From positions 1-13,791 of the forward strand of contig JANYCO010000056.1 of the NCBI GenBank assembly GCA_025360235.1: DNA of 13,791 nucleotides, given 5' to 3'. Below the pieces are notes generated by a model. That model searched no databases. It was not told where the DNA came from and saw only the letters and a program-made list of their open reading frames with translations. Position 1 is the stretch's first letter, and every line of letters starts with the position of its first letter. The translations under genes and the position numbers were made by a program. Shown here one piece after another: positions 9,136-9,336 of the stretch. The DNA is from Cytophagales bacterium. GTDB taxonomy: Bacteria > Bacteroidota > Bacteroidia > Cytophagales > Cytophagaceae.

Positions 9136-9158
9136 TTATTCTTTGCCTATTCTTTAAA

Positions 9159-9324
9159 CGCAAAGGTCGCAAAGATTCTGCAAAGAACGCAAAGAAAAAT
9201 TCACAACTTAAAACGCATAACTCATAATTTTTCCTGTACTATCTCCTAAATCTATTGCATTTTTCATAGTTTGCGTATATTTTACGCAACAATTAAATTA
9301 TTTATGCGTATAATTAACGCAAAG
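9159..9324. promoter_or_regulatory. Repeat-dense divergent intergenic/leader region: 4 phased GCAAAG repeats plus ACGCAA-type inverted repeats
   Basis: GCAAAG occurs at 9160, 9169, 9180 and 9189, spaced 9-11 bp apart. AACGCATAA lies at 9212-9220. The perfect palindrome TTGCGTA-N5-TACGCAA lies at 9271-9289. TGCGT-N7-ACGCA with AACGCAAAG lies at 9305-9324. Confidence 0.45.
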
Positions 9325-9336
9325 ATACTTAAGAAC

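Follow-up and report, generated by a model that had tools for sequence, protein, structure and literature searches.

What acts on the intergenic DNA in front of a bacterial gene whose product is homologous to major vault protein (MVP), and on which of the neighboring genes does it act? The DNA in question covers positions 9,136 to 9,336 of contig JANYCO010000056.1 from a Cytophagales bacterium (GenBank assembly GCA_025360235.1), of which a stretch of 13,791 nucleotides, here called the window, was analyzed at its full length. It separates the MVP-like gene from a divergently oriented gene for an RluF-like 23S rRNA pseudouridine synthase (rluF). A first reading of the sequence, referred to here as the original prediction, had taken its palindromes and repeats for a multi-site operator of a dimeric transcription factor. 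For the palindromes this proposal is supported by the present analysis, and the factor can be given a family name. The two palindromes are very probably operators of the NrtR family, NrtR being the Nudix-related repressor of nicotinamide adenine dinucleotide (NAD) metabolism in many bacteria, a protein with an N-terminal Nudix-like sensor domain and a C-terminal winged helix.

Two palindromic boxes and their relatives

Reading of positions 8900-9500 confirmed every motif coordinate of the original prediction, i.e. those of the GCAAAG copies, of a site at 9212-9220 and of both palindromes: TTGCGTA-N5-TACGCAA at 9271-9289 (box 1) and TGCGT-N7-ACGCA at 9305-9321 (box 2), the latter with AACGCAAAG at 9316-9324. 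A repeat search identified the palindromes as copies of one 18-nt site (TGCGTATATTTTACGCAA and TGCGTATAATTAACGCAA) whose starts are 33 bp apart, which is the offset that had been predicted. In box 1, 20 of the 21 positions of 9270-9290 pair and the 7-nt arms TTGCGTA/TACGCAA are perfect, while box 2 (9303-9323) has perfect 5-nt core arms and one mismatch in the extension of the arms. Both boxes contain GCGT-N7-ACGC and thereby the GT-N7-AC core of NrtR sites.

The clustering of these motifs is far beyond chance and not compositional. A stretch of ~190 bp holds five of the nine window copies of ACGCAA and six of the 18 copies of GCAAAG, and none of 1000 dinucleotide shuffles equaled the observed maximum per 200 bp for ACGCA, CGCAA, GCAAAG, ACGCAA or TTTGCG. 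Allowing at most one mismatch, TGCGT-N7-ACGCA occurs twice in the window (the two boxes) versus 0.13 expected, and the motifs are absent from all other intergenic regions of the window. The original prediction had itself named a compositional artefact of AT-rich intergenic DNA as the objection to be met. The GC content of the region is indeed low (about 0.32), but words containing CG are scarce in this DNA, and such arrays are missing both from the other intergenic regions of the window and from 2.7 Mb of loci fetched for comparison. The shuffle and pattern counts effectively refute an accident of composition, and the chance that we leave to it is next to nil.

The family assignment comes from other genomes. 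Metagenomes were scanned for two TGCGT-N7-ACGCA sites 6-36 bp apart, which gave 120 two-box loci (L133-L252). Forty-six of these are AT-rich and carry the double palindrome TTTGCGTA-N5-TACGCAAA, and nrtR was found by tblastn within about 2 kb at 40 of the 46. The dominant family of flanking genes at the AT-rich loci combines the Pfam domains NUDIX and NrtR_WHD, i.e. it is NrtR, and further flanking genes encode nadM-type NMNAT-Nudix fusions, NMNAT-NADAR, NAMPT/NadV and nucleoside deoxyribosyltransferase-like proteins. The boxes stand 3-21 nt before the ATG of nrtR or of one of these genes (nadM-Nudix, nadV/NAMPT, NMNAT-NADAR or deoxyribosyltransferase-like), and the order nrtR-boxes-nadM-nadV recurs in several of the loci. 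The motif-bearing NrtR proteins are from Bacteroidota, those adjoining the most window-like boxes being 79-81% identical to Mucilaginibacter proteins; the organism of the window is Cytophagales-like. In the complete genome of Mucilaginibacter jinjuensis (CP117167.1, locus L415) the order is nrtR - TTTGCGTATTTAAAACGCATA - TTTGCGTATAATTAACGCAAA - nadM/Nudix - nadV - prs. The 17-nt core of window box 2 is identical to box 2 of this promoter (17/17), and also to box 2 of three nrtR-nadM-nadV promoters of the metagenome scan (L229, L252 and L174). The window motif is thus the one that accompanies nrtR and NAD genes elsewhere.

Forty-seven distinct NrtR-associated boxes (21-34 bits in training) were used to build a scoring matrix, which gave 25.4 bits for box 1, 26.6 bits for box 2 and less than 8 bits for the rest of the window, with the reservation that its core columns are circular because the training sites had been retrieved with a pattern from this window. 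The 13 positions outside the search pattern fit the consensus too (P about 0.004-0.02 per box; for the non-core positions of box 1, about 0.008-0.02). False positives of the matrix are rare: 744 kb of bacterial MVP loci contain no hit of at least 13 bits, and 933 kb of viral MVP loci no hit of at least 12 bits. The published NrtR operator is likewise a 21-bp palindrome with a GT-N7-AC core (PMC2330246). It is this match, together with the co-occurrence of the boxes with nrtR and NAD genes at other loci, that identifies the window palindromes as probable NrtR operators. Rodionov et al. 2008 (PMC2330246) describe a gene order nrtR-#prs-nadV in Cytophaga hutchinsonii; their 'Cytophaga' NrtR group and the NAD-salvage operons of Bacteroidota, such as that of M. 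jinjuensis, are the closest known systems. The literature search for the motif strings themselves returned nothing informative.

By type, the palindromes add a further case to a class of operators already known, the NrtR boxes. They agree with the operators of Bacteroidota NAD-salvage genes in the 21-bp palindrome, the GT-N7-AC core and the consensus TTTGCGTAA-N3-TTACGCAAA, in the presence of two boxes per promoter that overlap -33/-7 promoter elements, and in the proximal box lying a few nucleotides before a start codon. They differ in having a tandem half-site array nearby, in the spacing of the boxes and in their neighbors, an MVP-like gene and a pseudouridine synthase gene instead of nrtR and NAD-salvage genes. 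There is precedent in Bacteroidota for targets outside NAD metabolism within the same protein family, namely the AraR/XylR-type NrtR paralogues of Bacteroides and Flavobacteria (PMC4666351; PMC2330246). These paralogues adjoin pentose-utilization genes, whereas the boxes of the window match the type that accompanies NAD-salvage genes.

Could the palindromes instead bind another dimeric helix-turn-helix protein, for example a phage-type or SOS-type repressor, and merely resemble NrtR boxes? LexA/cI-type operators are also dyad-symmetric, overlap promoters and often come as two sites per promoter, and their half-site centers are about 12 bp apart, the spacing seen here. In addition, the MVP-like gene appears phage-derived (see below), and in the locus of its only close relative an ORF6N/pRha-type gene follows MVP. 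The sequence motifs are different, however, and the window lacks an association with repair genes. The non-canonical SOS boxes of Bacteroidota, GGA-N5-TCC and CTAA-N5-TTAG (PMC8565304), do not match the palindromes and are absent from 9136-9336. No regulator gene is present in the window, the motif is missing from huge-phage MVP loci, and nrtR is the gene that co-occurs with it. We therefore regard a different repressor as very unlikely.

Some matches to the search patterns are unrelated to the window. Many of the 120 two-box loci, including L138, L140, L142 and L143, belong to a GC-rich, REP-like palindromic repeat family, GGGTGCGTGC-N5-GCACGCACCC, and several others are tandem arrays. Viral contigs scanned with the single-box pattern yielded single matches at chance level and one double match (L044, 11680-11740). 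The latter consists of three tandem 21-bp repeats, GGGTATACGCATTTTTGCGTA, in a phage replication-like open reading frame (ORF), where they encode PTQKCVY three times, and was rejected as a chance match.

Promoter layout and the two possible directions of control

Which gene, then, would an NrtR bound at these boxes control? Twenty-three oriented NrtR promoters (from L133-L252, and also L415 4700-4775) were aligned for comparison, and promoter elements were located with a custom scan for the Bacteroidota -33/-7 pattern TTTG-N17-23-TAnnTTTG. TAnnTT preceded the gene-proximal box in 21 of the 23 promoters, in contrast to 4 of 69 other box flanks. In these Bacteroidota NrtR promoters the left arm of the gene-proximal box carries a fused -7 element, TAnnTTTG, and the ATG comes 3-21 nt after that box. 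The second box is found upstream, either at 10-12 bp, where its own TTTG takes the role of the -33 element, or at 33-36 bp, just past a separate -33 TTTG. The original prediction had considered DNA looping between the two palindromes. This is unlikely for sites 33 bp apart, which would ordinarily be read as bound side by side; paired boxes, 27-29 or 50-53 bp apart, are also found in other NrtR promoters.

The features of the window, and those of other loci that are referred to below, are collected in Table 1.

Table 1. Location of the features discussed (window coordinates unless a locus is named; promoters are candidates)
Feature	Location	Strand	Remarks
Probable NrtR box 1	9270..9290	.	TTTGCGTATATTTTACGCAAC; 21-bp palindrome, GT-N7-AC core
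Probable NrtR box 2	9303..9323	.	TATGCGTATAATTAACGCAAA; ends 13 nt before ATG 9337, core ACGCA ends 15 nt before it
Candidate Bacteroidota-type promoter to MVP	9254..9283	+	ATTG-N18-TATATTTT, putative -7 inside box 1; custom scan
Near-consensus -7 element	9299..9306	+	TATTTATG; fused to left arm of box 2, towards MVP; 5/6 specified positions
Candidate leftward promoter	9320..9350	-	perfect -7 TATCTTTG (9327 to 9320) fused to box 2; -33 TTTA (9350 to 9347); 19-nt spacer
9-bp tandem array	9159..9195	+	Tandem Repeats Finder (TRF): 3.9 copies, consensus CGCAAAGAT; four direct NrtR right half-sites plus flank
Inverted GCAAAG copy	9141..9146	-	adjoins rluF start codon
Isolated half-site-like sequence	9212..9220	+	AACGCATAA; sequence reading
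Candidate rluF-proximal promoter in array	9161..9193	-	putative TTTG-N21-GACCTTTG; custom scan
MVP-like gene	9337..11736	+	product of 799 aa if started at ATG 9337 (alternative 9361; deposited annotation 9304)
Intrinsic terminator of MVP-like gene	11774..11800	+	12-pair stem, then TTTTTT
rluF-like 23S rRNA pseudouridine synthase gene	8468..9135	-	divergent; frameshift near 8845-8851
nadD (nicotinate-nucleotide adenylyltransferase)	3814..4392	-	NCBIfam TIGR00482, 178.7 bits (cut-off 112); last in string
Terminator after nadD	3783-3747	-	strong, 17-pair
NadE genes near phage MVP	L001-L005		1-3 kb upstream of MVP
Nudix gene near phage MVP	L006 3309-3830
Phage MVP loci with NAD-related genes	L364, L369, L383, L389, L393, L394, L400, L401		within 5 kb

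The evidence of the window on promoter direction is split. Read towards MVP, TATTTA before box 2 yields TATTTATG, one mismatch from the -7 consensus, and both the distance of box 2 from ATG 9337 and the orientation of its asymmetric spacer match the gene-ward layout of Mucilaginibacter-type nadM promoters. Read away from MVP, the TAnnTT-box fusion is perfect. Scans for sigma-70 promoters and for terminators gave nothing relevant in the motif region. As nothing promoter-like was found in 9325-9336, transcription of the MVP-like gene must start in or upstream of the boxes, and occupancy by NrtR should therefore affect it whichever promoter is used. The region is best read as a divergent control region gated by NrtR, judging from the layout of these elements.

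The leftward side of such a region would be long, running from box 2 through box 1 and the GCAAAG array into rluF and beyond. Seven minus-strand genes (rluF, genes for a 116-aa protein and a 211-aa TPR/zinc-finger protein, an MFS gene, menA, an SDR gene and nadD) follow each other with gaps of at most 109 bp and no terminator-like site between them. They may form an operon that ends in a NAD-biosynthesis gene and lies downstream of a leftward NrtR-box promoter. The rluF-like gene is split into ORFs of 94 and 125 aa, intact homologues having 219-227 aa, and is either a pseudogene or the product of an assembly error. Its homologues place the organism near Cytophagaceae/Cytophagales. Relatives with 68-74% identity have an MscS-rluF-4HBT neighborhood, with MscS upstream, no MVP and no motif, and their synteny with the window breaks exactly at the motif-bearing intergenic region. 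Because of this different synteny there is no orthologous intergenic region with which that of the window could be compared. As a whole the window is ordinary chromosomal DNA of a bacterium, with ABC transporter genes, a solute-binding protein gene, nadD, the SDR gene, menA, the MFS gene and the frameshifted rluF-like gene. The MFS gene was considered as a niacin transporter and rejected, its NCBIfam result being only a sub-threshold match to an MxcK-like exporter.

It is accordingly conceivable that the boxes are genuine NrtR operators of the leftward unit (rluF ... menA-SDR-nadD), or the remaining promoter of a NAD-salvage operon that was displaced, and that any effect on MVP is incidental. 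On the minus strand, box 2 carries the perfect -7 element TATCTTTG in the fused arrangement seen in 21 of the 23 oriented promoters, the string from 9135 to 3814 is uninterrupted by terminators and has a strong one right after nadD, and the break in rluF synteny coincides with the motif region. The similarity of the MVP-like gene to huge-phage genes, and the lack of boxes at every other MVP locus examined, would also fit. Yet nadD lies at a distance of 4.7 kb and six genes, the string opens with a frameshifted gene, and no coding remnant of nrtR, nadM or nadV is detectable in 9100-9400, where a degraded NAD gene in the spacer was sought by tblastn with nothing significant found. Moreover, MVP transcription would still start in or upstream of the boxes and hence be affected by their occupancy, and the spacer of box 2 read towards MVP is oriented gene-ward as in nadM promoters. 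Control of the leftward unit with an incidental MVP effect thus seems to us rather unlikely. If the boxes served only the leftward nadD unit, this would be an ordinary NrtR site, and the main use of the analysis would be a corrected MVP start codon and a description of the Bacteroidota NrtR box/-7 fusion.

A 19-codon ORF, MKNAIDLGDSTGKIMSYAF, was noted on the minus strand (9266-9207). It begins 4 nt past box 1 read leftward, the position at which NAD genes begin at canonical NrtR promoters, and has no significant similarity to the N-termini of nadM or nrtR products.

The MVP-like gene as a possible NrtR target

The product of the rightward gene is a member of the MVP family by its domains, with matches to Pfam PF11978 MVP_shoulder (92.4 bits, cut-off 25; 2.6e-26) and PF17795 Vault_3 (30.8 bits, cut-off 28.8; 3.2e-07), and 6631 homologues were found. 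Bacterial and phage MVP homologues have been described from Cytophagales, Myxococcota and large phages (bioRxiv 10.1101/872010; 10.1101/2023.11.10.566534). The gene is monocistronic in this locus and has its own strong terminator. In the deposited annotation its product (P0001, 810 aa) starts at ATG 9304, inside box 2. In the sole close relative, P0002 (91% identity), the start corresponds to 9337, and the relatives with 55-61% identity all begin near 9361; the homologue N-termini thus bear out the suggestion that the true start is 9337 or 9361.

Scans of genome and metagenome collections with the single protein gave no close relative besides P0002. The nearest homologues after P0002 (55-61%) are on phage-like contigs of 165-482 kb with genes for PolB, dUTPase, ClpP and ribosomal protein L12. 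In contrast, identity is only 43-52% for the MVP proteins of named bacteria, among them Myxococcota and Cytophagales (Nannocystis, Enhygromyxa, Thermoflexibacter, Microscillaceae and others). This closer similarity to the phage-like contigs suggests that the gene is phage-derived and was acquired from a huge phage.

We consider control of this gene to be the best explanation of the boxes, and we hold with moderate confidence that they are NrtR operators gating it. One NrtR dimer would occupy each 21-bp box. The boxes span the only DNA from which the MVP-like gene could be transcribed, box 1 overlapping the candidate -7 element, and with the core of box 2 ending so close to ATG 9337 bound NrtR should block initiation or elongation. 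The genome would encode an NrtR that binds at these sites, and its effector would be ADP-ribose, the product of NAD cleavage. In vitro, ADP-ribose suppresses DNA binding by the NrtR proteins of Synechocystis and Shewanella (PMC2330246). By this precedent it would free NrtR from the boxes and derepress the MVP-like gene, which may thus be switched on when NAD is broken down. Given the canonical leftward promoter, control is probably divergent and would extend leftward into rluF and possibly to nadD.

Several observations, in addition to the circularity of the matrix core, weigh against this explanation. No nrtR was detected in the 13.8-kb window (tblastn), and the genes nearest to the boxes are MVP-like and rluF, with no nrtR or NAD-salvage gene adjoining; nadD is at the far end of the leftward string, albeit with no terminator between. 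The gap between the boxes is 16 bp, outside the common spacings of 10-12 or 33-36 bp, and the perfect TAnnTT-box fusion is on the minus strand only, pointing away from MVP. Nor is the pairing of NrtR boxes with MVP seen elsewhere. Boxes were absent from the 80 MVP loci of named genomes (including 10 Bacteroidota; L253-L332), from 80 viral MVP loci (L335-L414) and from seven huge-phage MVP loci (L001-L007; exact core pattern on all seven, matrix on four distinct ones), and conversely none of the 120 two-box metagenome loci and none of three two-box viral loci has an MVP gene. The huge-phage MVP loci have tiny upstream gaps. Among all MVP loci examined the regulatory element is found at the window locus only, where the gene combines NrtR boxes with its own terminator.

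As to conservation of the motifs at orthologous MVP loci, a check named by the original prediction, none of the 160 other MVP loci covered has a box, and the NrtR-MVP pairing is either lineage-specific or accidental. The 'tight and unusual regulation' of the vault-like gene that had been predicted may exist, on the evidence of this one locus, and the best promoter-box fusion points away from the gene. Regulation of MVP by NrtR is plausible, with the balance about even or slightly in its favor.

What would such regulation mean? Eukaryotic vaults have long been without a clear function. Recently, a link to NAD and ADP-ribose was reported: in human vaults ADP-ribose is reported to be bound in the MVP shoulder, and TEP1, an active NADase, to be located inside the vault alongside PARP4, both of these components acting on NAD (bioRxiv 10.64898/2026.05.01.722283). 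ADP-ribose is thus both the effector of the tested NrtR proteins and a reported ligand of the vault shoulder, which makes an MVP-like gene behind NrtR boxes a suggestive coincidence, seen at a single locus. More tentatively, and with some doubt, a phage-derived vault homologue may have been wired into the NrtR regulon and be made when ADP-ribose rises, e.g. through NAD-depleting anti-phage systems. If true, this would be a prokaryotic counterpart of the eukaryotic link between vaults and NAD, and the first testable physiological cue for a bacterial MVP. The possible novelty would be the target, the MVP-like gene; targets of the NrtR family outside NAD metabolism are already known (AraR/XylR). 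In the literature we found no report on the regulation of bacterial or phage MVP, and no function established for these homologues. An operator of an ADP-ribose-sensing repressor in front of an MVP-like gene is a concrete hypothesis that is cheap to test.

A general link between MVP and NAD is unsupported in bacteria, with an NAD-related gene association at 1 of 80 bacterial MVP loci. An NAD-related gene of some kind lies within 5 kb at about 10 of the 80 viral MVP loci, a figure for which there is no background rate for comparison. The same holds for the gene types found near phage MVP, which are NadE, NadV, NMNAT-NADAR, Nudix and deoxyribosyltransferase-like (Table 1).

The GCAAAG array, RNA folding and minor features

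The GCAAAG copies start at 9160, 9169, 9180 and 9189 (spacings 9, 11 and 9 bp) and, according to the repeat search, form two 16-nt units 20 bp apart. The inverted copy at 9141-9146 and the 9-bp tandem repeat called by TRF (Table 1) go beyond what the original prediction had listed. The four phased copies do not qualify as a further operator like the palindromes, being single direct half-sites that do not score as full NrtR boxes with the matrix and have no counterpart at other NrtR promoters, where phased half-site arrays were not seen. Isolated half-sites are weakly enriched near other NrtR promoters (0.97 versus 0.53 per kb), and at no other place in the 2.7 Mb of fetched loci do three or more GCAAAG copies fall within 32 bp.

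The copies read AACGCAAAGG(t), tCGCAAAGAT, cTGCAAAGAA and AACGCAAAGAA, and the corresponding stretch of box 2 is AACGCAAAGAT. The minus strand of the array shows nnnCTTTGCG four times, a degenerate form of '-7 element plus box arm'. The array is real and, by this comparison, reads as a tandem amplification of an NrtR half-site/-7-box unit, for which slippage amplification of a 9-11-bp unit is the simplest origin. It may act as a weak rluF promoter, as a set of auxiliary half-operators or as part of a minus-strand leader structure.

Alternatively, the array could be unrelated to NrtR and represent an independent direct-repeat operator (OmpR/PhoB-type or LytTR-type) or weak TTTG promoter elements for rluF. 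Direct repeats, the 9/11/9-bp phasing and the 20-bp super-period would suit such an operator, and the minus-strand TTTG-N21-GACCTTTG would put a start site about 20 nt ahead of the rluF ATG. The repeat unit, however, exceeds TTTG in length: it is an 11-mer shared with the right arm and flank of box 2 (AACGCAAAGAt), which makes a common origin of array and NrtR box the more economical assumption. There is no response-regulator gene nearby, and 9 bp is short for tandem winged-helix dimers. An independent array is possible, but we find it doubtful.

The repeats might also act as RNA, either as hairpins in the 5' untranslated region of MVP or in a structured rluF leader. The plus strand of 9262-9345 does fold with z = -3.0, and 9136-9266 gives z = -2.7 on the minus strand versus -1.4 on the plus strand. 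Yet dyad symmetry by itself gives palindromes a fold signal, neither a U-tract terminator nor an Rfam match was found (best matches in the region 14-20 bits versus gathering scores of 55-90), there are no homologues for covariation, and the same boxes lie elsewhere on promoters and not in long leaders. The probability of a function as RNA is slight indeed.

The minus-strand RNA of 9136-9266 folds as a long imperfect hairpin, better than shuffled sequences, and could be a leader structure of rluF. An attachment site or island border was considered for the region and rejected, since neither noteworthy direct repeats on its flanks nor an integrase were found. Downstream of MVP, the contig ends within an ORF with a signal peptide (MKKLLLIIFLF...; 12079-13791, plus strand), whose 571 aa match no Pfam family. 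The first codons of this ORF (12083-12104) share a 22-nt direct similarity (82%) with 9210-9231 in the intergenic region; the two copies flank the MVP gene, and the similarity could be chance or the trace of an insertion event.

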